Source: Paraphysomonas bandaiensis (taxonomy: Eukaryota > Protista > Chrysophyceae). From it: a stretch of 64,000 nt of DNA. Shown here piece by piece: positions 10,177 to 30,725 of the stretch. Under the pieces are notes generated by a model. That model did not search any database. It was not told where the DNA came from and saw nothing but the letters and a program-made list of their open reading frames with translations. The translations under genes were made by a program, and so were the position numbers. The stretch covers positions 186,001-250,000 of the forward strand of contig CBFFRP010000298.1 of the NCBI GenBank assembly GCA_965644295.1. Reading direction: 5' to 3'. Within the stretch, counting starts at the first letter, position 1. Every line of letters begins with the position of its first letter.

Positions 10177-10234
10177 ATATAAAAAATATATAAAACAATT
10201 TAAAAAAATAAAATATAATATTATTATATATATC

Positions 10235-12040: not shown

Positions 12041-12096
12041 AATAATATAAAACAATTTAAAATATTAATATATATATTTAATATATATATATACAT

Positions 12097-12420
12097 ATGA
12101 ATTTTACGGTTAAAAATGTTGATATTGTATCAAAAGGTAAATACAAGTTAGGAGCAAAGAGAGTAAAACCTAAAACAGGGAATAAGCTTCAAATAAATGA
12201 TATAAGAACACTTTATAAAGCATTGTTAGATGATAAAGGAATAGATAGACATAAAATAAGCATATCTGTAAAAACCATTGACAATAGATACTTAACAATA
12301 AAGAGTTTTAAAGACAACGAAATTAAAGATTGGGATGATGTAGAATATTTAAAGAACAAAGTTAAAGATGATAAAAAATTTCTTGATTTTGTATATGCTG
12401 ATTTCTATGTGAAAACATAA
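12097..12420 (+). CDS. Hypothetical viral protein (107 aa)
   Basis: Clean ORF between the helicase and the polymerase, carrying the shared upstream motif. Confidence 0.7.
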   Translation: MNFTVKNVDIVSKGKYKLGAKRVKPKTGNKLQINDIRTLYKALLDDKGIDRHKISISVKTIDNRYLTIKSFKDNEIKDWDDVEYLKNKVKDDKKFLDFVYADFYVKT

Positions 12421-12492
12421 ATTAAAATAAATTAATATAAATTAATATAAAATAATATAAAGAATTATTATATATATATAATATATATAGTA

Positions 12493-14007
12493 ATGAGTTT
12501 TAATAAAAAAAAGTTTATCAATAAAAATGGCGAAGAAAGAGTATATAACAAAGAAACAGGCAAAGCGAGTTTTAATAAAAAAAAGTTTATCAATAAAAAT
12601 GGCGAAGAAAGAGTATATAACAAAGAAACAGGCGAAAATAGATATTTAAGATACTTCTATAGAGAGAACGGCAAAACATATTACATGTCACACGACAAAG
12701 ATGATTTGAACTGTCATGCAGACGAGTTATTTAAAGATGGATTGAATAAATATAACTATTTTGAATTGTTTGACGGTTATAAAGGTTCGAAAGAAGGAAT
12801 AATAAAGTATATGAAAGACTTTAAAGAAAGTTGCGATACATTACTAAAAGATGGTATATTTTATAAGAAATATTATAATCATAAGAGCGCTGCAACCCTA
12901 ACTTTTGTAAGATTCTCAAATATGAAAAAGAACAGTATAAGCATAAACAATAAGAAGGTTAGATTAGAAAACATAAACTTTAAAGAATCTTATGTTTTAG
13001 AGAAGTGTCATAATGCTGGTCTTTGTTGTTTAGATGAGAAATATAAAGATGATGTTATAAAGTGTTATGGATATGACTATGGAGCTTTCTATCCTCATAT
13101 TCTGTCTAAAAGTGATTTGAAAATTGCAACAACAAAGCCAGAATATAAGATGATGTCTCAAGATAAGTTTATGAAGAAGTTATCAAAAGGAAAGTTGAAA
13201 TATGGAGTATACAATGTCAAAATAACAATTAAAGAATGTAATAATAAAACAAGTCCTTCACAGTTTTATAAAAAGTTTTCATTTTCAAGTGATGATTGGT
13301 ATACTCATATAGACTTGTCATATGCATATTCACAAAAAGACAACTTTGAATTAGACTTTAAAATTAATGAACAAACGAAAGATTATAACACCATGATATA
13401 TGACAAAGATGACTTAATAGATAGCAAAGTTATATTTGAAAGTTGGTATGACAAATTAAAGAGTATGAAAGATAAGAATAAGAATATGTTAATCAAGCAT
13501 TTAATGTCTAGTATATGGGGTTATTTATGTGAACATAAGAAACTATATTATAATCAAGAAGAGTTTATGAAACTTGATGATGAAGATGTTTCAGACACAA
13601 CAGATAAACACGAAACAAAATATAAGATATTGAAAGAGAAGATGAGTATAGACAGTGATGATAATATAAAGATAAACTTCACATTGATTGACAAAGAACA
13701 ACCATATAAATACAACATAGCAAGAATGAAGCCTTTTTTAATGTCATATTGTCGTTGTTTTGTAGCTGAAATGATAGATAGAGAAGGCATATTAAATGAT
13801 ATAATAAGAATTCATACTGACGGTATAGTATTAAACAGAAAACACGAATTTAAAGACGAATACAAACCATTAAAAGAATCAAAGACAACAGGCAATATAT
13901 TATGGAAAAATACAAATACTTATTTCCATAAGTGTAAAAAGTGTAAGCGCTTATATTCACATAGAACAAATAAATTGATGGGTAAAGATGAAATACATGA
14001 ATGTTAA
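12493..14007 (+). CDS. Short, divergent family-B DNA polymerase (pPolB-derived)
   Basis: Motif A YGYDYGAFYP, motif B KHLMSSIWGYL and motif C IRIHTDGI in the correct order. There is an N-terminal 24-aa-period duplication and a C-terminal CKKC...H.C. Confidence 0.78.
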   Translation: MSFNKKKFINKNGEERVYNKETGKASFNKKKFINKNGEERVYNKETGENRYLRYFYRENGKTYYMSHDKDDLNCHADELFKDGLNKYNYFELFDGYKGSKEGIIKYMKDFKESCDTLLKDGIFYKKYYNHKSAATLTFVRFSNMKKNSISINNKKVRLENINFKESYVLEKCHNAGLCCLDEKYKDDVIKCYGYDYGAFYPHILSKSDLKIATTKPEYKMMSQDKFMKKLSKGKLKYGVYNVKITIKECNNKTSPSQFYKKFSFSSDDWYTHIDLSYAYSQKDNFELDFKINEQTKDYNTMIYDKDDLIDSKVIFESWYDKLKSMKDKNKNMLIKHLMSSIWGYLCEHKKLYYNQEEFMKLDDEDVSDTTDKHETKYKILKEKMSIDSDDNIKINFTLIDKEQPYKYNIARMKPFLMSYCRCFVAEMIDREGILNDIIRIHTDGIVLNRKHEFKDEYKPLKESKTTGNILWKNTNTYFHKCKKCKRLYSHRTNKLMGKDEIHEC

Positions 14008-15020
14008 TTATTTTGATTGTAATCATTAATCATATCTTGAAATCCATCTTCAATTAAGTTTTTCTCAGGTTCCCATGTGCTCTCATTCTTTCTGTAGTTC
14101 TTCCACCATATCAAATATTCAACTTTTTTCTTTTTTGTTCTCTTTCCAATAATTTTATATACTTCATATTTTGTTTCGTCTTCATCTTTAGCTTTCATGA
14201 GTTCATATTCAGAGTAAGATGTATTAGGTAATCCTTCTAATATATATCTGTAATAAGGTTTATCAGTGAAAGAAACAACTCTTATAATCTTCTTTGGTAT
14301 TTGTGAATATCTATAATCACCAACACGAAAATTTTTCGTATTTTGTTTATGTCCTAAAGCATTTTCAGGAGTGTCAAGCTTCTCATAAACAACATCGCCC
14401 ACATTATATTTTGCTTTAATAGAATAGTTAATGAATCCAGGTTCATTAACTGTTAAATTTTCTCTGAATTCATTTAAATCTTTTCTAACTATTGGTATTA
14501 TATCAGTCCATTCGCGAAATACTTTCTTTGTTTCTTTCTCTTTTTTATTCATATAACCATTAAAAAGTCTTGCTAATTGCTTATTTAGGGCTTCAACATT
14601 AGCCATTTGTTTATGTCTATTGGGTAAAGCGACTTTATGTAAAATTGAATTATCATGTAAGTATTTGAAAAAGACACCTTTAAATTCATTTCCGTCATCA
14701 GTTCTTATAGAAGCATAAGGTTTATCAATATATGGTCGTTTAAAGCATTCTTTCATAGCATTTAAGACAGTTTGAGAATCTTTATTCTTAATTGGTTCAA
14801 TGTCAAATCGTCTACTGAATAAATCACATATAACGAAACAGTATCTATATCCTTTTGAAGTTGTAGGAAGTTCCAATAAATCAGCCATCATATTATAATT
14901 AGCTTTTTGAACTGTATTCTTTCTAATGCTATTAAATTTCTTTTGTTTCTTTCCTTCTTTTGTAAATGTTTCATCAATATTTAGTTTCTTTATTATGTCG
15001 TTGAATGATTTCTTATTCAT
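14004..15020 (-). CDS. Retroviral-type (rve) integrase with C-terminal chromodomain
   Basis: DDE triad MMADL / IRTDDGNEF / ANVEALN. The chromodomain reads YEVYKIIGKR....VEYLIWWKNY...STWEPEKNL. Confidence 0.92.
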   Translation of the reverse strand: MNKKSFNDIIKKLNIDETFTKEGKKQKKFNSIRKNTVQKANYNMMADLLELPTTSKGYRYCFVICDLFSRRFDIEPIKNKDSQTVLNAMKECFKRPYIDKPYASIRTDDGNEFKGVFFKYLHDNSILHKVALPNRHKQMANVEALNKQLARLFNGYMNKKEKETKKVFREWTDIIPIVRKDLNEFRENLTVNEPGFINYSIKAKYNVGDVVYEKLDTPENALGHKQNTKNFRVGDYRYSQIPKKIIRVVSFTDKPYYRYILEGLPNTSYSEYELMKAKDEDETKYEVYKIIGKRTKKKKVEYLIWWKNYRKNESTWEPEKNLIEDGFQDMINDYNQNN

Positions 15021-15119
15021 ATATATTATGTGTATATATAAAATATAAAATATCTATTTGCTTAATTTTATATAAAGTCATTTAAAAAAATAAAAATATA
15101 TAGTATTATTATAACATAC

Positions 15120-15326
15120 ATGAATAAGTCAGAAAAGAATATTGCTTATCAAAAGGAATACTACAAGAAGAATAAAGACAAACTAATAGCTTATAATTGT
15201 AAAAAAGTCAAATGTGAATTATGCAATAGGGAAGTTTGTAAAAACAGAATTAAATTACATTACAAAACGGCATTATGTAAGAGAACACAAGAAGAGAAAA
15301 AGATGATTGAAGAAAGAAAGAAATAA
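15120..15326 (+). CDS. Small zinc-finger protein
   Basis: KEYYKKNKDK...CELC...H..T..C pattern, with the shared upstream motif. Confidence 0.7.
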   Translation: MNKSEKNIAYQKEYYKKNKDKLIAYNCKKVKCELCNREVCKNRIKLHYKTALCKRTQEEKKMIEERKK

Positions 15327-15382
15327 ATTAATAATTATTATAAAATGGTTTAAAAACTTATAAATATATATATATTATTATA

Positions 15383-15889
15383 ATGGCTGAAGAATGGAAA
15401 GTGATTGATGGATACAACAATAATTATAGTGTATCAAATAAAGGAAATATAAAGAATAACAAGACAAATAAGATATTGAAGCAAGCTATAAATAGAGACG
15501 GATATAATAAACTTTGTCTCTCTATGAATGGAAAGAAAAAAACAATTGATATACATAGATTGGTTGCAATGGCTTTTATACCAAATCCAGAAAATAAGCC
15601 TTGTGTAGACCATGTAAATAATATAAAAACAGACAACAATGTCAATAATTTGAGATGGGTTACAAATTCAGAGAATAATTATAACCAAAAGTTAAGCAAA
15701 GCAAATACATCTGGCGTGAAAGGAGTGTCTTATAACAAAAAAGATAAGAAATGGAGAGCGAAAATACAATTAGACGGCATTTCAATTCACCTTGGAAATT
15801 TTGACACAATCGAAGAAGCAAAACAAGCAAGAATAAAAAGAGCAAATGAAGCATTCGGAGTCTTCATAAATGCCTGTGAAAGAGAATAA
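15383..15889 (+). CDS. NUMOD4-HNH-AP2 homing endonuclease-like protein
   Basis: EEWKVIDGY..YSVSNKG (NUMOD4), HRLVA.AF...VDH.N..K.DN..NNLRWVT.SEN (HNH) and SGVKGVSY....KKWRAKI......HLG.F....EA..AR (AP2). Confidence 0.9.
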   Translation: MAEEWKVIDGYNNNYSVSNKGNIKNNKTNKILKQAINRDGYNKLCLSMNGKKKTIDIHRLVAMAFIPNPENKPCVDHVNNIKTDNNVNNLRWVTNSENNYNQKLSKANTSGVKGVSYNKKDKKWRAKIQLDGISIHLGNFDTIEEAKQARIKRANEAFGVFINACERE

Positions 15890-16219
15890 GAATCCTACAT
15901 AACAATAACAATGAATATAATGAATACGACACATATAACCAAACAAAGACAATATACCTGATATGCACTCATAATGACATCATATTTCCTTTATTTCCAT
16001 GCTTGTTATATATCACAATGATATAGACACAATGACAATGAATATTATGAATGAATATATATATAATGTATATATATACTCGTAGACACATAAACAACAC
16101 AACAGCATCACAACAACAACACAACATACACACCAACACAACAAACAACACAAAAATACAGAAAATATACAGACTAAAAATATTACATTTATATATTTAA
16201 ATCATGTCATCACGTATTA

Positions 16220-16438
16220 GGAAAGACGTTTGGAGTCGTTCCGGATGAAATAGTCTGTGGCGGCAGATGAAATAATCTGGTTCGATTCCCTATGCCGCCA
16301 CATTGAAAAAAGGCGTTTTTCTGAAAAAAAATGGAACTCAAATACTGTTAATGCTAGGCTTGGACCACATTAACACACATGAGGGTTCCAAACCATTTTT
16401 GGGGGAATTCCTTTACAACAATGGTTTGGAATCCTCAT
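16220..16438 (+). ncRNA. Candidate structured non-coding RNA with Pol III B-box
   Basis: GC-richer island in the only long intergenic gap. It has GGTTCGATTCC at 16279-16289, a 10-bp stem 16256-16265/16293-16302, a T5 run at 16316-16320 and a 19-bp stem 16379-16397/16420-16438. Confidence 0.4.
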
Positions 16439-16630
16439 AGCACCCATTTTGCTATAAAATAATCTTGAAAAGTCCCAATTTTGCTAAAACAAAACGACAA
16501 AATCCCAATTTTTATATAAAAACCTTGATTTATATAAAAAACCTTAATTTTAGAAATAAAACCCCCAATTTTTTTAAAAACCCTCAATTTAATTATAGAA
16601 TATAATAATGTTGTTGTATTATATATATAG

Positions 16631-18373
16631 ATGTCAATTTATACAAAGCCGAAAACAAGCAATAATGCCATTTTCAATGCAGAAAATCATAAACAGATTG
16701 AAACAGCAAGAGTAATATTAAATATGGCGGAATATGCAAGATTAGACAATGCTAAATTTACAGCGAACGTTGAAATCTTGAATGGTAATAACTTAACCAT
16801 AAACAATGAACCCCAAACAGTTGCTTTCACAGATTCAAAAAATAATATGTTGTCAGATATGAATACAAGATTATTAAACCTCACTGGAAATGAAATACAA
16901 ACATTAGACGGTATAAATACCAATGAAACTATACAATCACAATTAGATACATTGACAGCAAGTTTTAATGGTCTTGATGCTCTCCAAGATATAGACTTAA
17001 TTAATATACCGAATTTACAAACGGATGTGGCAAATTTACAAGCCCAAGATATAGCATTACAGAACAATATAAATTCTAAACATGATATAATCGATCTGAA
17101 TAATAAGTTATATTCTTCATTAGTGTATGATTCAACAGAATTAGACACAATAGATAATATTATTTCTAGTTTGAAGACTCAAATAACAAGTAATGATACA
17201 GACATAACAAACTTACAAAGTGACAAACACGATTTAATAGATGTAAATAACAAGTTGGATTCTGGATTAGTTTATGACTCAACAGAATTAGACACAATAG
17301 ATAATATAATTTCTAGTTTGAAGACTCAAATAACAAGTAATGATACAGACATAACAAACTTACAAAGTGACAAACATGATTTAATAGATGTAAATAACAA
17401 GTTGGACTCTTCATTAGTGTATGATTCAGCAGAATTAGATACAATAGATAATATAATAGTAAATTTACAAGGTCAAATAACAAGTAATGATACAGATATA
17501 ACAAACTTACAAAGTGATAAACATGATTTAATAGACGTAAATAACAGGTTAGATTCTTCATTAGTATATGACTCAACAGAATTAAACACAATGGATAATA
17601 TTATTTCTAGTTTGAATGCTCAAATAACAAGCAATGACACAGATATAACAAACTTACAAAGTGACAAACATGATTTAATAGATGTAAATAATAAACTTGA
17701 TTCATCATTAGTTTATGACTCGACAGAATTAAACACAATGGATAATATTATTTCTAGTTTGAAGACTCAAATAACAAGCAATGACACAGATATAACAAAC
17801 TTACAAAGTGATAAACATGATATAATCGATGTAAACAATAAATTGGATTCATCTTTAGTTTATGACTCTACATTTACTGATACAATTGATAACTTGCTAA
17901 GTACAATAGACGGCAATATTACAACACTTGAAAATACAAAATTGAATTTAACAGGAGGAACAATGACAGGAAATATAACAACTAAACAAATAAGCGAATC
18001 CATCAGCACAACATATACGTTTTCTTCAAATGTGTTGACATATAATTATAGCAATGGTTCAATCATATATTTCAATGGTTTAACAAGTGATACAAATTTT
18101 GAACTTGATATAACGAATATTAATTCAAGTAACTTAACAAATACTTCTTTCACAGTGTCAGTTATAATAGACACATCAACATATAAGGCATATATAAACA
18201 CTTTAAAAGTTAATACAGTTTCAGAAACGTTGAATGTGTCAGGAGGACTCGCAAATATTAATGTAGACGATGTGACAACATCAGGAGCAATATTACAAAC
18301 AATAACAATAATATATACTAATTCAGGAACATCACCAACGAAAGTAATATCAAATATAGGTTCATATTATTAA
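16631..18373 (+). CDS. Fibre-like virion protein with 49-aa tandem repeats
   Basis: 147-bp repeats start at 17078, 17225, 17372, 17519, 17666 and 17813 (partial). It has an LTGGTMTGNI fibre-type motif, a beta-rich C-terminus and an N-terminus shared with 28313-29368. Confidence 0.7.
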   Translation: MSIYTKPKTSNNAIFNAENHKQIETARVILNMAEYARLDNAKFTANVEILNGNNLTINNEPQTVAFTDSKNNMLSDMNTRLLNLTGNEIQTLDGINTNETIQSQLDTLTASFNGLDALQDIDLINIPNLQTDVANLQAQDIALQNNINSKHDIIDLNNKLYSSLVYDSTELDTIDNIISSLKTQITSNDTDITNLQSDKHDLIDVNNKLDSGLVYDSTELDTIDNIISSLKTQITSNDTDITNLQSDKHDLIDVNNKLDSSLVYDSAELDTIDNIIVNLQGQITSNDTDITNLQSDKHDLIDVNNRLDSSLVYDSTELNTMDNIISSLNAQITSNDTDITNLQSDKHDLIDVNNKLDSSLVYDSTELNTMDNIISSLKTQITSNDTDITNLQSDKHDIIDVNNKLDSSLVYDSTFTDTIDNLLSTIDGNITTLENTKLNLTGGTMTGNITTKQISESISTTYTFSSNVLTYNYSNGSIIYFNGLTSDTNFELDITNINSSNLTNTSFTVSVIIDTSTYKAYINTLKVNTVSETLNVSGGLANINVDDVTTSGAILQTITIIYTNSGTSPTKVISNIGSYY

Positions 18374-18374
18374 A

Positions 18375-18500
18375 AATAATTTATTCTATTCAAAATATTT
18401 TTTCAAAATAATTTATCAAAAATATTTATTCTATTCAAAATATTTTTTCAAAATAATTTATTCTATTCAAAATATTTTTTCAAAATAATTTATCAAAAAT
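18375..18500 (+). repeat. Internal copy of the 45-bp TIR repeat
   Basis: Same unit as 9777-9915, located immediately after the fibre stop codon. Confidence 0.85.
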
Positions 18501-18545
18501 ATATAAAACAATTTAAAAAAATATTATATATATATATTATATATC

Positions 18546-18713
18546 ATGCCTAGAGAAATTAAAAGAAAGTGTAAACATTGTGATAAAACTATAAAAAGAA
18601 TAAACAATGATTGGGAATCAAGAGAATATCATAAGAAATGTTATAAAGAGATTGAAGAGATGAAGTCAATGATTATGAATATGGAGAAATATAAGAAGAT
18701 GTATAATTTATAA
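18546..18713 (+). CDS. 55-aa CxxC...HxxC zinc-finger protein (below the ORF-track cutoff)
   Basis: MPREIKRKCKHCDKTIKRINNDWESREYHKKCYKEIEEM...; preceded by AAAACAATTTAAAA and TATATA like the other viral genes. Confidence 0.65.
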   Translation: MPREIKRKCKHCDKTIKRINNDWESREYHKKCYKEIEEMKSMIMNMEKYKKMYNL

Positions 18714-18776
18714 ATTTTGTTGTCATTATAGTTAGTTAGTATTATATATACATATGTATATGTAACGTTTCAAAAA

Positions 18777-19100
18777 TTAATAGCCTTGTTCAGGTTTAAT
18801 ATAAGAACCGTGTGAATCATCATATTCTTTTAATAGCTTTTTTCGTTTTTCATAAGCTTTAGTTTTTTCAAGTTGTTCACTTGGTAAGTTTCTATTAATA
18901 GGATTCTTATAATATATTTGTTGTCTTTCATCTAATAATTCAATACTTTTCAATTTCTTTTGTATATCCAAGTCTTTAATCAATGCTTTATATTCATCTA
19001 TTTTTTGATTCAGTTCATTAATTTCTCTTTGAACTTGTGGTTTTCTAGATTTAGGAATACTGTATAATTCATTTTTTAAACAAATAACAAAATCTGCCAT
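18777..19100 (-). CDS. Hypothetical coiled-coil viral protein
   Basis: 107-aa ORF with a TATATA tract upstream. Confidence 0.6.
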   Translation of the reverse strand: MADFVICLKNELYSIPKSRKPQVQREINELNQKIDEYKALIKDLDIQKKLKSIELLDERQQIYYKNPINRNLPSEQLEKTKAYEKRKKLLKEYDDSHGSYIKPEQGY

Positions 19101-19212
19101 AAAGTATATATAATATGTTTATATAAAAATATAGTTTTCAAATTTAATAAAAATAATAATTTTATTATAAAACAATTTAAAAAACTAATTTTATATATAT
19201 AATATATATATT

Positions 19213-19587
19213 ATGAAAACTTTAACAATTGACATTGAAGAAATTGACAGTTTATATTCAAAGCTACAAAATGATAAAGAAATAAGATGTATTGTATTTA
19301 AAGATTCGAAAATGAATGAAATATTAACAAGACCTTTTGACATGAACGTTCGCAATTATGATGAATATATGATACGTACAGAAGTATCTATGAGAAAACT
19401 AAATAAAATTATTAAAAATATTCCTAACACAATAACACATCTTGAATTTACTAAACCTATTTGTTGGTATGAAAAAGAAGTTTTCAAATATTTACCTCAA
19501 AGCATACTTAAAATTAAAAATGAAAACAATCACATAATGACTAGAGAAGAAATTAAAAAGTATTCCAAACAAACATCTTATAAATGA
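19213..19587 (+). CDS. Hypothetical protein with FNIP-like repeat fragments
   Basis: IPNTITHLEF and LPQSILKIK resemble FNIP/IP22 repeat units. Confidence 0.6.
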   Translation: MKTLTIDIEEIDSLYSKLQNDKEIRCIVFKDSKMNEILTRPFDMNVRNYDEYMIRTEVSMRKLNKIIKNIPNTITHLEFTKPICWYEKEVFKYLPQSILKIKNENNHIMTREEIKKYSKQTSYK

Positions 19588-19601
19588 CGTAATTTTTAAA
19601 T

Positions 19602-20288
19602 TTATTCTCCAATAACTTTGTCAGGTTTTAAATATTTCAAAGCGTCTGTACTATGTGATTTAAAAGGGTTATTTGTTTTAGCATTAAATACTTTAGTTTT
19701 ATTTTTTTTATTATTATTAAAATAATTTAATGATGATACAGGGTCATTGCTTGTTTTAATGTCTGTTTGATTTGATTGATTTTTTTTTAACATTTCAAAA
19801 GGTGATATTGCCTTATTAAATGTAATAACGTTTTTTGAATTCTTCCCTACTTCTTCTGCAACGATGCCACCTAAAGAATGCCCTAATGTGTGCATGTTTT
19901 CAGTTCCATATTTCTTTTCTGCTTTCTTTTGTATTTTTTTAGCATGTTTAAATCTATTTCCTCTATATCCAAATAATAAGCCTGTATCAGTCATCATATC
20001 TTTTTTAGAGTTTGTCCCACGATGAACAACAACGGGCATATTATTTTCTTCATCATAATAAACTTTTGTTCTATTTCCAGATAAATGCTTATCAACTTTA
20101 AAATTACCTACATCTTTGTTTTTTTTATTATATGAAGACTTTAATAATTTTCTTGTTTCATCTGCTGTTAAAGCACCACCTTTCATTTCATAATATAATG
20201 CTCTGCACACAGGGTCTGATAAGGCTTCATTATACTTCATATTATTTTGTTCGCTATATTGTTTTACGTGTTGTATCCATTTAGACAT
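19602..20288 (-). CDS. Lipase-like alpha/beta hydrolase with a small N-terminal helical domain
   Basis: VVHRGT, GHSLGG nucleophile elbow, DPVS and SHS. Probable start is MSKW at 20288 (track start 20312). Confidence 0.85.
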   Translation of the reverse strand: MSKWIQHVKQYSEQNNMKYNEALSDPVCRALYYEMKGGALTADETRKLLKSSYNKKNKDVGNFKVDKHLSGNRTKVYYDEENNMPVVVHRGTNSKKDMMTDTGLLFGYRGNRFKHAKKIQKKAEKKYGTENMHTLGHSLGGIVAEEVGKNSKNVITFNKAISPFEMLKKNQSNQTDIKTSNDPVSSLNYFNNNKKNKTKVFNAKTNNPFKSHSTDALKYLKPDKVIGE

Positions 20289-20419
20289 ATTAATACTATA
20301 TATATTACACATATATAATAAAATGAAATAGTTTTATAATGCGATTAATAAAATTGGGAATATTTTTTGAATAATAACTTTAACTAGAATCTCAACAATC
20401 AACGATTTAATGAGAGCCT

Positions 20420-20956
20420 TTAAGAAGCTTTCATCGTCATTGAAAAAAAAATTCTAAGTCTTGTTGCTAATCTTCTGAATATGTTACTTCTTTTAACTTT
20501 ATACATTACATTATTGATACTATGTAATAAATATGTTTCATCATTGTTAAAATATGGTTTCATTATTTCAACAACAGCTTCCATTTTCATATTGTTTCTT
20601 TGTTCTTTATCACCATAAATAAAAAAATATTCAGCAATATCTAAGACAGCCACTAATAATTCACTATCATATTTATTGCTTCTTGGATCAAGAGGCTTTA
20701 AAGTTTCCTTCAAGTTTTCTAAGAACACAGCTTTTTGATTATCTAGTTTATACTTCTTTCTTAAGTTTCTATATGATTTAAGCCGCTTAAGATTATGATT
20801 GTAAAGTGTTTTTGGTGGTAATTCACGCATTGATTCTTGCTTTTGAATAACAGGAGCCTTAAATGAATCAAAAGGATTTGAATCAGATTCAACAATTGAT
20901 TTATATGTTTCAGGCATAGCGTCTGTTGGTTTACTAGGAACAGTCAATTTTTTCAT
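20420..20956 (-). CDS. Hypothetical viral protein; possible -1 frameshift extension to 20334
   Basis: 178-aa ORF that ends just after a T9 run (see findings). Confidence 0.75.
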   Translation of the reverse strand: MKKLTVPSKPTDAMPETYKSIVESDSNPFDSFKAPVIQKQESMRELPPKTLYNHNLKRLKSYRNLRKKYKLDNQKAVFLENLKETLKPLDPRSNKYDSELLVAVLDIAEYFFIYGDKEQRNNMKMEAVVEIMKPYFNNDETYLLHSINNVMYKVKRSNIFRRLATRLRIFFSMTMKAS

Positions 20957-21009
20957 CTATATATATATAAATTGCAGATTTAAAAAATTATATAATTCTT
21001 TAACATAAA

Positions 21010-21510
21010 TTAAAAATATTTCTTCAAGTCATTTTCATAGATTTCTTTGAATCTTCTTTTTAGTATCTTCACATTCTTTTCTGTGTTACTTGTATCAAAA
21101 GGTTTAAGAAATAAGTTTAAATGATAACCTAAACTTCTTATATCATCTTTAAAACTTCTTAGATTATTGAAATGATAAAGAAAGTAAACACAATAAAAAC
21201 CACAGGAAGTGTCTTTTATGCCTTGTATTTGGTCACATGAATATATTAACTTCTTCTTATTACAAAAACTTATAACTTCTCTAGGAGGTGCAATTCCATA
21301 TGAATCAAAATATACACAAGTTTTTTTAAAACACTTCAAAGCTACCCAATGAGAACCCGTACCTTTATCACTATCTTCTAAGTTTATAATATAATTGCCA
21401 TTTTCTTTTGCTTTACCTAATAACTTATTCTTACTCACTATTTGATTAAGATTTATACCTTTCAACATAAGATAATGTGTCAAATCTATGTTACTTGTTG
21501 TGTAATCCAT
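21010..21510 (-). CDS. Adenain/Ulp1-like cysteine maturation protease
   Basis: IINL......GSHWVAL, YFDSYG and QIQ.....SCGFYC give the H-D-Q-C catalytic set. Confidence 0.92.
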   Translation of the reverse strand: MDYTTSNIDLTHYLMLKGINLNQIVSKNKLLGKAKENGNYIINLEDSDKGTGSHWVALKCFKKTCVYFDSYGIAPPREVISFCNKKKLIYSCDQIQGIKDTSCGFYCVYFLYHFNNLRSFKDDIRSLGYHLNLFLKPFDTSNTEKNVKILKRRFKEIYENDLKKYF

Positions 21511-21527
21511 TATATATTATATTCACA

Positions 21528-22316
21528 TTATTTTTTCTTTCCACAATGAGAACAATAACAACAAGTATTAGGCAAACTTGATATTCCAGGGTCAAAACCA
21601 GGATGTCCAGCTCTAACTAGATTACTTCCATCGTCTTTAAGTTTAACGGGTTTCTTTCCTTTGTAATCCACTTCTATAACTCCAGCACCCAATGTTCTAA
21701 ATGATGAGCCAGTAGTAAGTTTTTTTTTAACTTTCTTCACTTGCTTTGATGGAAGATAAGGATTACCACTTCCTTCAGTTGGAGGAGAATTTGAAGATTG
21801 AGTATTAGCATGTTCTCTTAGTGAATTAAAATCATTAACAAATTGACTTCTTTTCTTTTCATCTTTTCTATCTTCAATATGGTCCACACCACTTCTAACT
21901 AACTTATCACCTAAACGGGTTGTGGCATTCAATAGATTATATGAATCACTAACAACGGGAATGCCTAAATCACCAACAACAGCAAAATCATTAACAGTGT
22001 TTTTAACCTTTCTTGAAGTATTTTTAACCTTTCTTCCTAAGTTTGGGTCTTTGAATGTCTTTTTAACTTGTTTCTTAGTCTTATTGAAAGCACTTCTAAT
22101 GTTTTGTTTTAGATTACCACCTTCAATTTCATTATTGTCTAATGTTAGTCGCGTTCCTTTTGACTTATTATAAGAGTTTTCAATTTTTTTCAAGTTCTTG
22201 TCAGATAAAGCAACTGGAAAGCCAAAGCCGATTTGGTCTGGTCTAACTTGTATATTGTGTCCGTTTGATAACTTTCTTAATTGAGCTTCAGATAGATTGA
22301 GTTTTACTTGATGCAT
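21528..22316 (-). CDS. Basic putative core protein
   Basis: LS.AQLRKL..G...KG.RLTL...IEGG N-terminal domain, Lys/Arg-rich, located between the MCP and protease genes. Confidence 0.65.
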   Translation of the reverse strand: MHQVKLNLSEAQLRKLSNGHNIQVRPDQIGFGFPVALSDKNLKKIENSYNKSKGTRLTLDNNEIEGGNLKQNIRSAFNKTKKQVKKTFKDPNLGRKVKNTSRKVKNTVNDFAVVGDLGIPVVSDSYNLLNATTRLGDKLVRSGVDHIEDRKDEKKRSQFVNDFNSLREHANTQSSNSPPTEGSGNPYLPSKQVKKVKKKLTTGSSFRTLGAGVIEVDYKGKKPVKLKDDGSNLVRAGHPGFDPGISSLPNTCCYCSHCGKKK

Positions 22317-22383
22317 TATATATATATTATGTTGAGATAATAATTAGTTTATATTAAATATTATCATACTAAAAATATTTTGT

Positions 22384-24072
22384 TTAATCTACTCTTTTTC
22401 CTGTTGCTACTTCAATTCCGAATGATTTCTCTTGTTCAATGAAGATATTAAAATCAAGTGGTTTCGGGCTGCTTATATTACATTCAAGCTGGATAGATAA
22501 GGGAACGCTTTCGTCATCAGTGTGTTTACGTTTTAAATCTACCACAATATAACCGTATGTATTAATGAAGTCTTTTAAATTGATTCTTGAACTACATAAA
22601 CCAGTCGTTAAGTTAAAATTTACTCCATATTTACCATTTAACTCTCTCATAAACATATCATATGAATAATTAATTTGATTAGGATATAAATTAACACTTG
22701 ATACTTTAACTTGAAGATTTTGAATGGTATAAGGACTACAGGTTGCGGGCTCAGTTGTGAAAGGTGATTGAAACGGGTGAATTTGATTTGTTCCATTGGC
22801 GGATGAACTAATATAAGGACAAATTATCATCCTCTTTACATGTGATAGGCCATTTGTAATAAGTTCATTGACTTGAGATGACTTATTGAAAAGTTGGAAC
22901 AAAACGACATCATTATAAATAAGTTGTTGTTGTGGGCTCTCTAAATATCTTTTCTGGAGAGCAGGTTTCATTGTATAAGAAGGAATGTGAAGAAAACAGT
23001 TTTGTTCCTTACATGGAGTAACATTAAGTGTATTGTGTGGGTAAAATTGGGGTTTTGCTATGTTACTACTGATTGTCAACACTGTTCCATCTGGAATTGT
23101 GTATCCACCACAGTATATATTGTCTGCAACTGATGAGTTATTCGCACCGCCAAATAAACTGTTATATTGAGAACTACACACCATTAAGGGGTTACTTCCT
23201 CTTCCGTTAAAATCTGCTGGAGAAAATGACATTGTGTCGTTATCTGTTTTAGTCACTTTGAATATACACTGGTTAAAATTTATTGTTATTTTGAAAAGAC
23301 CACCTTTCATGGGAGGAGATTTCTCAAATATACTTGAAAGGTCTTTAAGACGAATAATTTCAGTATGATAATAGGCTTTATATGTTGCAGTATTCACAAC
23401 ATAACTGCGATTCATTTCTTTAATTTTTTCATTATTACCCACTACCAAATTTCTTTTAGATTCATTGAGTGTATCAACAACTTTATTAAAAACTTGTTGT
23501 CTTTCATACATTCCTTTATTACATTTATTGATGTAATCAATACCATTTAAATGATTTATAGCGTTATTGTTATTCATTAATCCGTTCGCTTCATCATAGC
23601 TCCATGAATCCGGTGTGTCTTTGGCATATGATATTGTGTTTCCGTTCACATATTCATCATCTAATGACATTTCTGAATGTTGTTTAAATATTAAGTATTG
23701 ATTAATATTTCGTGTTTCTTGGACTCCCCATTGATTTTGGTATTGAATGGTTATTGAATCTATCATATTTAAACTTGAATTTTTCCTACATAGTAACAAA
23801 TCACTCTCTTTTATGTGCGCTGCTGTAAAGTCAACGGGATTACCACCGTTTTCACCAGTCACAACATCCACTATTGGAATTGTAAAAAATCCATTTTTGT
23901 AATCACATATTTTGCCATTGTTACTAAGTGTGGTAGTTTCAAATATTGTTTGATTACTTGAATAATTACCTGAAGTTTGCAAATCACTTACTTTGCTATA
24001 ATCCCACTCCACAAAGTCACTTACATTCTCATGTGCTTGTTCAAAAGATTGGTCAACTATTGCCTTGTCCAT
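22384..24072 (-). CDS. Major capsid protein (double jelly-roll, PLV-type)
   Basis: 562 aa and beta-rich, with GNYSSNQTIFETTTLSNNG..DYKNGFFTIP, IDSITIQY and YGYIVVDL motifs. It lies in the morphogenesis cluster with mCP, ATPase and protease. Family assignment is from recalled similarity and context. Confidence 0.82.
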   Translation of the reverse strand: MDKAIVDQSFEQAHENVSDFVEWDYSKVSDLQTSGNYSSNQTIFETTTLSNNGKICDYKNGFFTIPIVDVVTGENGGNPVDFTAAHIKESDLLLCRKNSSLNMIDSITIQYQNQWGVQETRNINQYLIFKQHSEMSLDDEYVNGNTISYAKDTPDSWSYDEANGLMNNNNAINHLNGIDYINKCNKGMYERQQVFNKVVDTLNESKRNLVVGNNEKIKEMNRSYVVNTATYKAYYHTEIIRLKDLSSIFEKSPPMKGGLFKITINFNQCIFKVTKTDNDTMSFSPADFNGRGSNPLMVCSSQYNSLFGGANNSSVADNIYCGGYTIPDGTVLTISSNIAKPQFYPHNTLNVTPCKEQNCFLHIPSYTMKPALQKRYLESPQQQLIYNDVVLFQLFNKSSQVNELITNGLSHVKRMIICPYISSSANGTNQIHPFQSPFTTEPATCSPYTIQNLQVKVSSVNLYPNQINYSYDMFMRELNGKYGVNFNLTTGLCSSRINLKDFINTYGYIVVDLKRKHTDDESVPLSIQLECNISSPKPLDFNIFIEQEKSFGIEVATGKRVD

Positions 24073-24114
24073 ATTGTATAATATATACTTAGATTATAAA
24101 ATATTTTATAATAA

Positions 24115-24335
24115 ATTATTTGAAAAATTATTTTGAATAGAATAAATATTTTTGAATAGAATAAATATTTTATAATAAAATATTTTGAATAGAATAAATA
24201 TTTTTGATAAATATTTTTGAAAAAATATTTTGAATAGAATAAATATTTTTGATAAATATTTTTGAAAAAATATTTTGAATAGAATAAATATTTTTGATAA
24301 ATATTTTTGAAAAAATATTTTGAATAGAATAAAAT
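24115..24335 (-). repeat. Internal array of the 45-bp repeat upstream of MCP
   Basis: tattttgaatagaataaatatttttgataaatatttttgaaaaaa x3 (24181-24315) plus partial units. Confidence 0.88.
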
Positions 24336-24338
24336 ATT

Positions 24339-24638
24339 CTATACTTTTAAATTAGCAAATTTTTTTAATCTTTCCATTGATACATTGTTTACACTCTGAA
24401 ATAACTCATCTTTGGTTCTCTCTTGTCCTTTCCCTTCTGTTCTTGGTTTCACCTTAATACTAATTAGTTTATCACTTAAACTTATATTAGGTTTCTTTGT
24501 GTTTTCCACTTTCTGTTTATGTTCAATAATTACGTCTTCTTTTATCTTATCTTCTTTTGTTTCTTCTTGTATTTCTTTTCTATGAGAAGGAATTACTTGT
24601 CTTCTCATTGTTCCACCTATCATTTTATAATATGACAT
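24339..24638 (-). CDS. Hypothetical basic viral protein (99 aa)
   Basis: ORF between mCP and MCP with an N-terminal MIGG. Confidence 0.65.
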   Translation of the reverse strand: MSYYKMIGGTMRRQVIPSHRKEIQEETKEDKIKEDVIIEHKQKVENTKKPNISLSDKLISIKVKPRTEGKGQERTKDELFQSVNNVSMERLKKFANLKV

Positions 24639-24681
24639 ATCGTATATAATAGTATTATATAAAAAAATATACTATATCGTT

Positions 24682-25569
24682 TTAATCTTTATCAGGACTC
24701 TTAATAATTAACATTATAACCGTTTCAGCGTCTCTTATATCTAATCTTCTCATATCTTGGTCGTATAGTTCTATTGTAAAACTTGAATATAAAGCATCTC
24801 TCACTTTAACAAATGACTCTGTTTTTGGTTCTCTATCTATCATACCTCCAAATTCAACACTACCACTTGTAAATGAATATAACAGTCCATCAGGATTGCT
24901 AAAGCCGTTTTGAGTAGTCATTGAACAAACAACGTTTATAGAGCTAACAGGCGTCATATTTGGTGTTTTATCAGATAAAAAAGTTATATTTGTACTTGAT
25001 GCTATTGATGGGTACGATCCATTAGAATATCCTATTAAGCCTCCAAATGAAGAAAAATTTGAAACAACTAGTTGAGGTGTTGTGGCTGTTGAAGGATAAG
25101 ACCAAGTCTCTGAACCTTTGACGAAATCTGTTCCCGCTTGTGCTGCTGTCATCATTGCATATACATTCAATTGAACTGAATAATAACTTACATTTGAAAT
25201 GAATTCTATGTGATAAGCAAAATCACCCGTGCTTTGTTGAATCAAGTAATGACCCCTTTTCTCTAGTTCAGATTGTAAAAATTTATTCAATAATTCAACT
25301 GTATAAAATCCATCTGGAATTGTAATATCTATAGTTGTGTTCAAGTCTCCTGCATTGTCAAACCATACATATGAAAACTTATTGTTTCTGAAATAATCTG
25401 ATATATTAAACCAACTGTAATACATATTTATGCTTTGAATAGCTAATGAACAATCATTTAGTCGTAATGATTGATTAAAAGTATATTTGAATACTGAATT
25501 CTTTGAACCTGAAACTATATTATTTTTATTTAATATAATTGTATTGTAGTTATAATTTGTGTCTGACAT
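24682..25569 (-). CDS. Minor capsid (penton) protein
   Basis: FKYTF...SLAIQSINMYYSWFNIS...NNKF...ITIPDGFY...LN and C-terminal IELYDQ, the usual single jelly-roll penton pattern. Confidence 0.85.
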   Translation of the reverse strand: MSDTNYNYNTIILNKNNIVSGSKNSVFKYTFNQSLRLNDCSLAIQSINMYYSWFNISDYFRNNKFSYVWFDNAGDLNTTIDITIPDGFYTVELLNKFLQSELEKRGHYLIQQSTGDFAYHIEFISNVSYYSVQLNVYAMMTAAQAGTDFVKGSETWSYPSTATTPQLVVSNFSSFGGLIGYSNGSYPSIASSTNITFLSDKTPNMTPVSSINVVCSMTTQNGFSNPDGLLYSFTSGSVEFGGMIDREPKTESFVKVRDALYSSFTIELYDQDMRRLDIRDAETVIMLIIKSPDKD

Positions 25570-25607
25570 TATATAATATTTACTTATATAATAATTTTTG
25601 TAAATAG

Positions 25608-26066
25608 TTATTCTAAACTATTTAAGATTTCATTTAACTGTTCATCATCTATTCTACCTATCTTATTAAGTCTTTTCAATATGTCTATTCCTTCTTTCAA
25701 TACTTCATTGCTGTTGTTTCCTGCTTGAATACTCCCTTGTAATAGTTCAAATCGCTTTAATAAATCTTCTTCCGTTAGTTCTGGCTCTTTGTATTTCAAT
25801 TCTGTCTTTGCTCCTGATTGTGTCATTATGATGTTAAATAATTTCTTCTCTTCTTCTGTTAATCGTTTTATCATTTCATAATTTAGTTCATTTGTGTCAA
25901 TTAAGTTTAACAACACACTCGCAAACTCGGGGCTTATTGTTTGTGTCTTTATATATCTGCTGAATGGTGACCCTGTTTCATATAATACCATTAGTTTATT
26001 ATCTAATAGCTTCATTACATTTATTTGTAGTTTGTAAAACTTCTTGTAGTTCTTTTTAATTGTCAT
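25608..26066 (-). CDS. Hypothetical virion-module protein with RFELLQGSIQAGNN motif
   Basis: 152-aa ORF; the motif resembles small conserved Polinton/PLV proteins (recalled, not searched). Confidence 0.7.
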   Translation of the reverse strand: MTIKKNYKKFYKLQINVMKLLDNKLMVLYETGSPFSRYIKTQTISPEFASVLLNLIDTNELNYEMIKRLTEEEKKLFNIIMTQSGAKTELKYKEPELTEEDLLKRFELLQGSIQAGNNSNEVLKEGIDILKRLNKIGRIDDEQLNEILNSLE

Positions 26067-26115
26067 TATTATATAATATACTATTATATTATATTATATT
26101 TTATACTATTGAATA

Positions 26116-27534
26116 TTAACCAAATCTAACTCTCATACTTCCAATCTTTTTAATCTTTAATCCGTTGCCATCTTTTATAATGTCTTCTTGTGGTTCTTCT
26201 TCTACTTCATCTTCATCGTCATCTTTTCTTTTCATTTCTTCTTCTTCTCTTCTTATATCGTGTATAGTTCGTGTAATTGATTTTCTCGGTTCTCTTGGTT
26301 GTTTTGCTTCTCCTATATCTCTTTCACCTCCTTGTGCTAGTCTATTTCTCACTATGTTATGTACAGTTTTAAAATTATCACCAGTTACAGTGTTATATAT
26401 GGTCTTTTTTCGAACAGTTGATGCTCCTCTTCCAGTTTCCGTGAAGAGTTTTCTAACTCCGTTATAATCATCTTTGTCTTGTTGACTCGCTTTTTCTTTA
26501 CTCGTTTTATAATCATCTTCTTTTCCTAGTCTTAAAATGCTTGTTAATCGTTGCATTTTTCTGTTAACATCTTCCAATTCTTCCATACTCATATTATTTA
26601 CCCTACCAATTGCTCTTTGTGTTTCTTCATTATATTCTTCTTTCTCTTCTTTCATCTCAGTCTCTTCTTTCTCTTCTTTCTCTTCGTCAAAGTCAAAGTC
26701 ATAATCAGTGTTGCTATAAATATGAAAATCTTTATCTTGATCTGTTATTGATGATATTGAATCAGAAACTGAGTAATCATCATAAAGTGAGTAATCATCA
26801 GAAACTGGGTAATTTTGAAATTGTCTTGCGAAACTTTCTAATGATTTTTTGTCTATCTTTTGTATTTCTGGAACAATTGTATCTTCATCAAATTCTTCAT
26901 CAAAATCAGGTAAATCTGACATTTCATAAGCTTGTTTCACTTTGCTTTCTCCATACTTCTTAATCAATGATTCTAAAGTTAGTTGCAATGCTTCAAGTCT
27001 ATCATTTAAATCATTTTTAGTTTCGTTTGATATACCCGCTATATTAGTTAAATGTCGTATTATTGCATCAACTTCTTGTTCTGATGATAAAAGATTTCTT
27101 ATTCCTGATGTGTTTTTTTGATTTTCAAGATATCTATGTACAAAGTCATACATTTCTTGCGCTCTCACTTTACCTACCTTATTAGATAAAGAAGAAAACA
27201 TACCTAAAAAATATTTGTTAAAGTCAACAAAGTTTTTATATCTACTATTCTTTAATTTATTCAAAAAGTCTTGTGCCTCGTTACCGTCATTTTTAAACAA
27301 CTTCAAAGCGTTCTTTTGTGCTGTCTGTGATTGTAATACTTTATCTTCTTCTTTTTCTGCTAGTGTTCTATTATCTCTTAGTTCTGGTGTTATACCTTCT
27401 TTTAAGTGTTGTTGCTCTTCTGATATATTCTTACTAATGTCTGATAATATTTTTAAGTCGTTTAGTTCCTTTTGTCTAAAATATTTTGCTCTTTCCTTTG
27501 GACTCAATCTTCTTATTTCAAAACTTGATAACAT
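26116..27534 (-). CDS. Hypothetical charged/coiled-coil viral protein
   Basis: 472-aa ORF with acidic tracts, located downstream of the ATPase. Confidence 0.75.
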   Translation of the reverse strand: MLSSFEIRRLSPKERAKYFRQKELNDLKILSDISKNISEEQQHLKEGITPELRDNRTLAEKEEDKVLQSQTAQKNALKLFKNDGNEAQDFLNKLKNSRYKNFVDFNKYFLGMFSSLSNKVGKVRAQEMYDFVHRYLENQKNTSGIRNLLSSEQEVDAIIRHLTNIAGISNETKNDLNDRLEALQLTLESLIKKYGESKVKQAYEMSDLPDFDEEFDEDTIVPEIQKIDKKSLESFARQFQNYPVSDDYSLYDDYSVSDSISSITDQDKDFHIYSNTDYDFDFDEEKEEKEETEMKEEKEEYNEETQRAIGRVNNMSMEELEDVNRKMQRLTSILRLGKEDDYKTSKEKASQQDKDDYNGVRKLFTETGRGASTVRKKTIYNTVTGDNFKTVHNIVRNRLAQGGERDIGEAKQPREPRKSITRTIHDIRREEEEMKRKDDDEDEVEEEPQEDIIKDGNGLKIKKIGSMRVRFG

Positions 27535-27569
27535 CTTTTTATATATAATAACAACATATTTTTTTATAA

Positions 27570-28286
27570 TTAAAATGCTTCTATATTTAATATTTCATTG
27601 AAGTTCTTTCTGAATGCTCTTTCACTTGGCGCTTCTAAATCAATTAATAAAAAGTTCGTTATTTTGTCATCTATACAATACTGATACATGTTTAATAATT
27701 GCTCAATACTTCCATTTAAAGCATGATTTCTCATTAAATAAGTTATATCTCTTTTTCCACTTATCTTCTTCATTATTAAATAATTTAATTGCTCTCTAAC
27801 TAGTGTTGGAACTTTTGCATATTTCTGAGTCAAATACATTAATGATATACCTATTTTGCGACCTCTTAAGAACATTTCACCTATTATATCTTGATTCTTC
27901 TCATTAACTAAGTCATCAAATATAATTAGCGTTTGTCCGAAATATTCTTTATCAATGTTAACACTTCTTAAATGCTCTAGTCCTTCATGAATTTCAAATA
28001 AGTCATCATTGTCTTCTAACTTACTTTCTAAGTATTCATATAACGGTTCTTTCTTGTTTCTTGTATACAAGATAATCTTGTGAAACGTATTATTCATAAT
28101 ACAAATCATGTTCAAAACTATGTTCGATTTACCTGCTCCAGATGCTCCAACGATTAACATTCTGAAAGGAACTTTTATTCCATGTTTTCCATAGTTAGGA
28201 TTAATAGATTCTGTTTGAAAGGCTTTTACTTCGTCTAATTCATAAAAATTTACTATATCAACCATCTTATACTGTATATATAACAT
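27570..28286 (-). CDS. A32/FtsK-HerA family DNA packaging ATPase
   Basis: PFRMLIVGASGAGKS, LIIFDD and RGRK.GIS...LTQ.Y..VP..VR. The true start may be MVDI at 28265. Confidence 0.93.
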   Translation of the reverse strand: MLYIQYKMVDIVNFYELDEVKAFQTESINPNYGKHGIKVPFRMLIVGASGAGKSNIVLNMICIMNNTFHKIILYTRNKKEPLYEYLESKLEDNDDLFEIHEGLEHLRSVNIDKEYFGQTLIIFDDLVNEKNQDIIGEMFLRGRKIGISLMYLTQKYAKVPTLVREQLNYLIMKKISGKRDITYLMRNHALNGSIEQLLNMYQYCIDDKITNFLLIDLEAPSERAFRKNFNEILNIEAF

Positions 28287-28312
28287 TGTTTAGAAAAATA
28301 TATTCATTCTTT

Positions 28313-29368
28313 TTATATTTGTGTAATTTCTATTGTTGATTTTAAAGTGGTATCACTGCTTGCACCATCAAAATTAAAATCAGAATCAAATGATAAAGTA
28401 TATGTTGATAATTCATCTACAGTTATATAGAAAGAAATTTCACCTGTTATATATTCAATAGAACCTCTATTAGCTTTCCAATGTTGCCCAGATTTTCTTG
28501 ACTTTTTATGTAAAACATTATTCTTATGTAATTCGATATGAGTAAAAAAATGGTTAATAGATTCAAGTGTTCCAAGTTCATATTGATGTATGATTAAGAA
28601 TCTACCTAATTTTTTAATATAACCGAAGCTATCAAAAAAGTCATCTACATCTGGCGTATATGGCGCTAAAACATTATATTCACTCGTATATGATATATTA
28701 ACGCTTGATGCATATAACACACCAGAACCAATTGAAATAATTCCTGAAACATTACCATTAGTGATATTTGTTGAATTATAACCTATCATTTCACCTTTGT
28801 TAAATTCATATAATTTTGATATGCTACCTAAACCATGTCCTAAGGCGTCTAATTGATTTTGAATGTTTGATGAAACATTATTTAGTTTGTTTAATTCGTC
28901 GTTTGTTATTAATCCATCTCCTATTAAACCACAACTTATTCTATTTCCTGATGTTATTAAATCTTGTTTTCCTGTTTCATAGTTATCATATGTCGTTTTT
29001 AAATTATTTGTAAAGGCCACTGTTTGTTCACTTAGATTTGGAAATATTATTTTTGATACTTCTACACTTCCTGAAATTGACGTATTCGTTCCATCATATG
29101 ATAGATTAGTTGCTTTTGTTTTCGTATTTTCAATGTCTGTTTTTAAATTGTCTGTCATTGCCGTTGTTTGTATTGAATCGTCATTAAACAATAATTGTCC
29201 ATCTCCATATAAATTCAATGATTGCAAAACTAGAGTTCCACTCATTACATCTCCACTCTTTTGAATATATCCTGTTAAGTCAACGTCAACAATGCTATCT
29301 TTTATATATGTGTAATTTGAAGGGTTAAATACTCCATTTGATGGTTTCGGTTTGGGGTAAATACTCAT
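28313..29368 (-). CDS. Second fibre-like protein
   Basis: MSIYPKPK...FNPSNY N-terminus, SGDVMSGTL, QTVAFT and IQNQLDAL motifs shared with 16631-18373. Confidence 0.68.
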   Translation of the reverse strand: MSIYPKPKPSNGVFNPSNYTYIKDSIVDVDLTGYIQKSGDVMSGTLVLQSLNLYGDGQLLFNDDSIQTTAMTDNLKTDIENTKTKATNLSYDGTNTSISGSVEVSKIIFPNLSEQTVAFTNNLKTTYDNYETGKQDLITSGNRISCGLIGDGLITNDELNKLNNVSSNIQNQLDALGHGLGSISKLYEFNKGEMIGYNSTNITNGNVSGIISIGSGVLYASSVNISYTSEYNVLAPYTPDVDDFFDSFGYIKKLGRFLIIHQYELGTLESINHFFTHIELHKNNVLHKKSRKSGQHWKANRGSIEYITGEISFYITVDELSTYTLSFDSDFNFDGASSDTTLKSTIEITQI

Positions 29369-29440
29369 GGTTATATATATTTATACTATATAATTATTTA
29401 ATGTGAAAATTACAAATTATTTTATAACATCAATATATAT

Positions 29441-30238: not shown

Positions 30239-30267
30239 TATTTTTATCTAACATATATATATATATA

Positions 30268-30675: not shown

Positions 30676-30725
30676 AACAATTTAATATAATGTTTTAATT
30701 TAAAAAAATTAAAACAGTAAAAGGA

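Follow-up and report, generated by a model that had tools for sequence, protein, structure and literature searches.

The element and its genes

The window, by which we mean the whole stretch of 64,000 nucleotides analysed here, contains an intact endogenous Polinton-like virus (Table 1). Its two TIR arms are 815 nt each and 100% complementary, and a Pfam scan found an rve integrase with a chromodomain, an A32 ATPase, an adenain-like protease and an HNH nuclease. Since the TIRs and the target-site duplication occur together with the rve integrase, the A32 packaging ATPase and the adenain-like protease, the element was placed with the Polinton-like viruses of the Maverick type, and its predicted gene content is the set of such a virus. 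The element has a GC content of 27% and 20 genes totalling 5,825 codons. The ORFs at 22384-24072, 24682-25569 and 12493-14007 had no Pfam match; from their size, position and motifs we take them to be putative capsid and polymerase genes. The last of these, of 504 aa, has what we assume to be polymerase-B-like motifs and is short for a protein-primed polymerase. It carries a duplicated 21-aa repeat at its N-terminus, and 4 nt are shared with the convergent integrase gene. An AT-rich repeat of the TIRs (9776-9898 and 30985-31126) recurs inside the element at 18364-18505 and 24099-24338, where the copies occupy intergenic gaps and may be replication or regulatory signals.

The flanks of the element are eukaryotic with retrotransposon-like ORFs. 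We take the segments 8528-9325 and 31405-34398 (minus strand) to be the two halves of a Copia-type retrotransposon pol ORF, into which the element was apparently inserted with duplication of TTCCT. Further away, at 53814-58754 and 59643-63944, two long retrotransposon-like ORFs lie in tandem on the minus strand and are near-identical.

The gene studied here encodes a protein of 178 aa and lies between genes for a protease and a putative lipase. The structure predicted for the 178-aa protein is all-helical with a pLDDT of 92.

Table 1. Features of the element and of the region around the 178-aa gene. Positions are those of the window.
Feature	Position	Strand	Remarks
Intact endogenous Polinton-like virus	9337..31566		22,230 bp; long TIRs and 5-bp target-site duplication TTCCT
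Downstream neighbour: alpha/beta hydrolase, putative lipase	19602..20312	minus	weak Pfam matches, E 0.003, below cut-off
-1 frame extension	20334..20444	minus	36 codons and stop; no ATG
Hairpin of the initial annotation	20400..20442	minus	folds as drawn, -13.3 kcal/mol
178-aa frame-0 ORF (short form)	20420..20956	minus	all-helical; C-terminal basic amphipathic helix and Phe-Phe
T9 slippery run	20443..20451	minus	AGA ATT TTT TTT TCA; A9 on the plus strand
Upstream neighbour: adenain-like cysteine protease (Peptidase_C5)	21010..21510	minus	Pfam E 4.5e-5

A slippery run close to the end of the gene

Codons 169-171 of the 178-aa ORF contain the heptamer U_UUU_UUU in frame (20450-20444 on the minus strand), and the TAA stop of frame 0 follows 7 codons later at 20422-20420. 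A shift to the -1 frame at the run would add the codons 20444-20337 up to a stop at 20336-20334, 21 nt short of the lipase-like ORF. The predicted long form of about 207 aa ends in a hydrophobic helix punctuated by lysines, with an uncharged C-terminal end. The run, the in-frame U-UUU-UUU, the stop 7 codons on and the open -1 frame of 36 codons were all found as the initial annotation had described them. Heptamers of this type occur 50 times in the 20 genes of the element; being commonplace at 27% GC, the motif alone is no evidence, and it is its conservation that exceeds chance. The primase-helicase-like gene at 10235-12040 also ends in Phe-Phe with T_TTT_TTT; there the -1 frame is shut after 4 codons, and this site is probably due to chance.

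The length of the homopolymer was checked in sequencing runs that contain the window sequence, among which marine metagenomes were prominent, which makes a marine protist the likely host. No indel was observed at 20443-20451 in the runs X3, X5 and X10. In the run X1, deletions of 2 nt (depth 3774 of 25227) and of 1 nt (1732) were present at this position. X1 also had deletions in five further homopolymers, all of them free of deletions in X3 and X5, and its deletions look like run-specific noise, with the reservation that contigs drop rare true variants. When close protein relatives were aligned, 16 of 16 terminated in frame 0. The changes in their last codons, T174M and S178F, both fall at wobble positions of the -1 frame, and T174M was confirmed in DNA. 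The T9 run is not an assembly error. Contigs of the RNA-type runs X15, X16, X18 and X19 do not reach across the site, which says nothing about expression. In X1 and X3 the region 20100-21100 showed a very high summed contig depth, which is not a copy number, and many variant letters; this points to numerous related element copies in those organisms.

The initial annotation had also proposed a hairpin as the stimulator of the shift, which is probably not the case. The hairpin starts 1 nt after the run and was not better than shuffled sequences (z -1.07; 25 of 200 shuffles as good), and with a spacer of 5-6 nt the z-scores were 0.05 and -0.27. In a relative with 88% identity, three of the five changes at paired positions of the hairpin break pairs. 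Read in the -1 frame, the changes that this relative has behind the run are either silent or conservative.

The family of the 178-aa protein

A profile search with the 178-aa protein gave 177 representatives at E<=0.001, and a second one, of a word-indexed database, added one further protein and no names. Nearly all of the 150 matches listed stop soon after the basic helix and Phe-Phe, or Lys-Lys. Two of 166 proteins, P0072 and P0085, continue in frame through the helix and Phe-Phe into a tail like that of the -1 frame in the window. A Pfam search of 118 members found no family shared across them; a single member touched Phage_TAC_12 with an E of 0.008. Searches with the model of the 178-aa protein for similar folds gave nothing at E<=0.001 (best Z 5.5), which is not proof of a new fold, and the protein had no match in PDB sequences, PHROGs, GenBank phages or ESM Atlas features. 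Scans of viral contigs with single proteins, either the 178-aa protein or the capsid protein, gave no matches.

Homologous loci were retrieved from viral and metagenome contigs with degenerate DNA patterns whose last residue is 162, 166 or 167, upstream of Phe-Phe. Of 128 loci fetched, 9 lacked the family gene and were dropped. The remaining 119 and the window made up 120 loci, which fell into 67 clusters at 90% identity; the clusters are 22-50% identical to the window. The genes next to the family gene encode protease, capsid, ATPase and integrase. One locus (L010:2148-7042) is a virophage contig, where the family gene lies with Sputnik-type major and minor capsid genes. The predicted protein thus represents an unnamed family that is common to Polinton-like viruses and a virophage. 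Of the two neighbours to which the initial annotation had linked the gene, the protease has a homologue directly upstream of the family gene in 7 other clusters (36 clusters have at least 900 nt upstream). The link to the lipase is not conserved: among the 66 other clusters, a single one has a homologue of it near the family gene.

The -1 tail is conserved

The frame-0 end of the family is short and variable, with the stop 11-32 codons past Arg162 in 66 of 67 clusters. Beyond this stop, the -1 frame was open for at least 15 codons in 66 of 67 clusters and the +1 frame in 21. A hydrophobic tail was present in the -1 frame of 63 clusters compared to 2 in the +1 frame; since the clusters are related to each other, p-values from such counts are inflated. 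Clustering at 50% left the tail in 20 of 22 clusters and the heptamer in 19. When a profile of the tail was run over the 120 loci, it matched the -1 frame of 112, frame 0 of one and the +1 frame of one; 6 gave no match, and two of these are incomplete. A profile built without the window ranked the -1 tail of the window first among 1,801 window segments (E 1.3e-5). There is no ATG in the tail in 46 of 65 clusters. A DNA pattern that starts from the tail gave 2 loci, neither with the family gene.

Selection on the tail was analysed in pairs of loci with at least 70% identity. For this, 106 of the 120 loci were usable, and the 14 without a complete tail of ordinary length were left out. In 30 disjoint pairs, the differences at the three codon positions of the -1 frame were 85, 11 and 160. 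The pN/pS was 0.17 for the -1 frame, compared to 0.90 and 9.39 for the other frames, and by this measure the -1 frame is under purifying selection. The homology of the tails and the pN/pS indicate that the tail is real coding sequence. The homologues strongly support the proposal of a programmed -1 shift that adds a genuine hydrophobic tail. A second point that had been taken as a sign of coding, the echo of the segment YFNNDETYL at the start of the tail, is present in 2 of 67 clusters and is due to chance.

A few loci depart from this pattern. L046 and L117 have no reachable tail. In L051, deletions behind but not within the run have joined the tail to frame 0, so that only the long form can be made. 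In L032 the tail is in the +1 frame behind a T8 run and a near stop, possibly as a +1/-2 variant or by an error. Divergent or longer tails were found in L027, L028, L049, L052 and L120; in all of these except L028 the -1 frame runs on for 47-59 codons beyond the stop and includes additional hydrophobic segments ahead of the usual end. Some of the exceptional loci may be decayed copies or assembly faults.

The slippery signal across the family

We then looked at the position of the heptamer relative to the near-invariant Arg162. It was found 6-12 codons past this residue in 61 of 67 clusters, compared to 96 of 981 control windows from the same genes, and in 55 clusters Z was not G. Homopolymer runs of at least 8 were present in 54 of 67 clusters, compared to 12 of 981 control windows; the runs span 6 to 10, with at least 9 in 32 clusters and 7 or fewer in 13. 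The T-runs exceed the length that a bare heptamer would require, since 50 of 57 reach at least 8 where 52% would be expected. Phenylalanine was encoded by TTT and TTC in a ratio of 133:4 at the site and of 303:91 in the core. The last -1 stop and the frame-0 stop are no more than 3-5 codons apart in 12 of 65 clusters, and the run makes up the stretch between them. The run is the predicted entry point into the tail frame. In L002, L055 and L111, where slipping on the T-run would lead onto a -1 stop, an A-run behind it is used instead.

A canonical heptamer was absent in 6 of 67 clusters, and five of these (L016, L035, L082, L085 and L120) have kept the tail. In four of the five, the frame-0 stop is directly behind the run, and L085 has a run of T6. 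The heptamer phase is not kept by four runs, three of T7 and one of A7.

Most members had no 3' structure beyond that of the controls (median z -0.05; 4 of 59 under z -2). A canonical stem-loop 5-9 nt after the heptamer was absent from the window and the T-run members and was found in one lineage only, that with A_AAA_AAC. As the window has no stem-loop at this spacer, its site does not belong to the canonical structure-stimulated class of -1 sites.

In the exceptional lineage (L014, L023 and L118) there is no T-run. An in-frame A_AAA_AAC lies a few codons earlier instead, and the -1 frame is open from there. A stem-loop follows 6-7 nt after A_AAA_AAC in the three clusters, with z-scores of -3.2, -3.7 and -1.9 for a hairpin that was chosen after a scan. 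The stem showed no two-sided covariation. In a tree built without 3 short rows of the 67, the three clusters form one branch among T-run sisters, so that the switch to A_AAA_AAC counts as one evolutionary event. Six of the eight T-run sisters have a -1 stop at the position of A_AAA_AAC. This heptamer is among the most shift-prone ones for mammalian ribosomes and the usual spacer is 5-9 nt, according to the part of PMC5009743 on such signals. A_AAA_AAC with the predicted hairpin at 6-7 nt is a textbook ribosomal layout.

How the tail is reached

From the comparison of the loci, it is very probable that the end of the gene holds a recoding site which is conserved and leads into a -1 tail under selection. 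We consider -1 ribosomal frameshifting the probable route into this tail. A fraction of the ribosomes would slip back one base at the run, so that a short form and a longer, tail-bearing form would be made. In the window the shift would take place on Phe codons and in other lineages on Lys-Asn or Lys-Lys codons. The T-run members would rely on long runs with overlapping heptamers instead of a 3' structure, often with the frame-0 stop directly behind, and the basic nascent helix upstream of the run may add a pause. In the A_AAA_AAC lineage, the stem-loop 6-7 nt downstream would act as the stimulator. The Semliki Forest virus 6K/TF site is described in PMC5009743, of which parts were available to us, as having no functional 3' structure.

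The main competing explanation is that the RNA polymerase, either the host Pol II or the enzyme of a giant virus, slips on the run of T or A and inserts an extra base into some transcripts, so that the long form is made by normal translation. The T9 of the window and the excess length of most runs over the heptamer fit this, as do the four T7 and A7 runs that are out of phase. In the sections available of the two articles, slippage on 9 A or T is efficient for the bacterial polymerase (PMC5009743), and indels by the yeast Pol II grow exponentially as the tract becomes longer (PMC5650487). The dnaX gene of Thermus thermophilus resembles the gene of the window in its T9 run and its two products per gene (PMC5009743, in part), but there the slipping enzyme is a bacterial polymerase, and the relatives of the window gene with A6C and a hairpin, or with T6-T7, have runs too short for the mechanism described. 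L014, L023 and L118 keep the tail with A6C only, where A6 is short for a polymerase to stutter on, and with a stem-loop at the spacing of ribosomal sites. The T6 of L085 and the 13 clusters with runs of 7 or fewer also speak against polymerase slippage. In addition, the signal is common to an integrated element and a virophage, for which the polymerases may differ and the host ribosomes would be shared. On balance we consider slippage of the polymerase unlikely as the route to the tail, and both routes may act.

It is very unlikely that the tail is joined by splicing, with the T-run as a polypyrimidine tract, or arises as a small peptide of its own by reinitiation or from a non-AUG start. The host is eukaryotic and a frame-compatible GT..AG pair was found in 58 of 59 clusters, though this is expected by chance. 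No YAG lies between the run and the tail in 8 clusters, including the window. The commonest GT[AG] position is common to 29 of 67 clusters, and the top ones precede the site, within the coding core. A pyrimidine tract is missing from the lineages with an A-run or with A_AAA_AAC. For a separate peptide, an early Met is present in 19 of 63 tails, against which stands the lack of ATG in most clusters noted above. Against either version, the in-frame fusions hold the helix, Phe-Phe and the tail together.

Slightly less likely still is a switch at the DNA level (phase variation) or a sequencing error, where copies with other run lengths would make the long protein and those with T9 would be off or broken. 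The deletions of 1 and 2 nt in X1 could be seen in this light, as could the in-frame fusions in 2 of 166 proteins and in one of 120 loci, L051. A mutable switch would scatter the frames, but they were found at 112:1:1 (-1:0:+1) despite the runs of 6 to 10. There was no length variant in X3, X5 and X10, the fusion in L051 does not lie in the run, and A6C is hardly mutable. That an AT-rich open stretch lies by chance behind a Phe-Phe kept for protein reasons is hardly credible, for all the commonplace heptamers of the element and the insignificant hairpin of the window, given the homology of the tails and their low pN/pS over lineages of 22-50% identity and the preference for TTT over TTC at the site.

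The tail and its proposed role

Behind a Lys or Arg, the uncharged C-terminal end is 9-11 residues long in 63 of 63 tails measured. This is too short for a usual single-pass tail-anchored membrane helix, for which about 18-20 uncharged residues would be needed. A tail that docks onto or inserts into the membrane surface is more likely than a membrane-spanning one. The distinction made earlier between a soluble and a membrane-associated isoform is right about the hydrophobic tail and too simple otherwise, since a basic amphipathic helix is already found at the end of the short form, and the uncharged end of the tail is so short.

Under -1 ribosomal frameshifting, the long form would be the minority, and many short and few long copies would be combined at a fixed ratio in one assembly, as for G and GT of phage lambda. 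The long form would tie the assembly to a membrane during particle assembly or exit. The family gene lies within morphogenesis modules, by protease, capsid and ATPase genes, also in the virophage. The likeness to lambda G/GT lies in a near-terminal shift that adds a conserved end to a short, variable frame-0 end. We put forward the fixed ratio with a membrane-tethering long form as a tentative proposal, by analogy, which is somewhat less probable than not to be correct in this form.

Relation to known systems

Lambda G/GT, as presented in part of PMC5009743, is also found in the morphogenesis region of a dsDNA virus, with a -1 shift close to the gene's 3' end, a short and a C-terminally extended product, and a ratio set by the shift. 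Unlike the gene of the window, it belongs to a bacterial tailed phage, is located among tail genes and has a T domain that binds the major tail protein. The gene of the window comes from a family of eukaryotic Polinton-like viruses and a virophage, has a short hydrophobic tail and shares no family with G/GT. Membership in the G/GT chaperones was rejected from its non-tail neighbours, the lack of a PHROG match and the lack of a Pfam family in common, and the likeness is one of working only.

The 6K/TF shift of alphaviruses is, in the same portions of PMC5009743, another -1 shift of a eukaryotic virus that alters the hydrophobicity of a C-terminus, with stimulators that vary by lineage. In contrast to the window gene, where a hydrophobic end is added, the shift in this RNA virus polyprotein removes one, and there is no homology. 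Closer by virus type are the -1 sites predicted for Penton and Hexon-Adenain of adintoviruses (PMC11071296, in part), which are slippery sites near the 3' end in Polinton-type viruses and would give an alternative C-terminus. These are capsid genes of animal viruses with cysteine-rich tails, unlike the gene described here, and the sites are software predictions that the authors call hypothetical; the passage on them gives no test of conservation or selection. The element itself resembles the Gossevirus group and other endogenous Polinton-like viruses of PMC10120064 in being integrated, TIR-flanked, about 20 kb long and from a protist, with an rve integrase and capsid genes (putative in the element), and the Gosseviruses also have a cysteine protease. 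In the parts of that article available to us, frameshifts are mentioned three times, unlike here as assembly errors or search settings.

The gene and its signal were not described in the portions consulted of the literature on frameshifting in Polinton-like viruses, virophages and mavirus (including PMC10120064, PMC11071296, PMC5009743, PMC5650487 and bioRxiv 10.1101/2022.07.28.501842), where supplementary tables of surveys may list the family under a cluster number. The cases from eukaryotic DNA viruses in the portion of PMC5009743 concerned are special cases in herpesviruses.

Taken together, we propose a widespread family with a conserved -1 ribosomal frameshift, reached by two interchangeable signals (a bare long U- or A-run, or A_AAA_AAC with a hairpin), that would supply a fixed membrane-docking minority of the protein. 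It would be a counterpart of G/GT in eukaryotic tailless viruses and the first such recoding signal there to be backed by conservation and selection in the literature searched. We assign this reading as a whole a probability of roughly 0.6.

Conserved functional frameshifting is familiar from RNA viruses and tailed phages. The signal described here extends over no fewer than 22 lineages below 50% identity, from abundant protist viruses as well as a virophage, and leads to a form of the protein that gene callers have overlooked, with the tail present in just the two database proteins. One gene supplies natural pairs of stimulator-free and hairpin-driven sites that are directly comparable. For viruses generally taken to have naked capsids, the tail would suggest that their cycle includes a step at a membrane.
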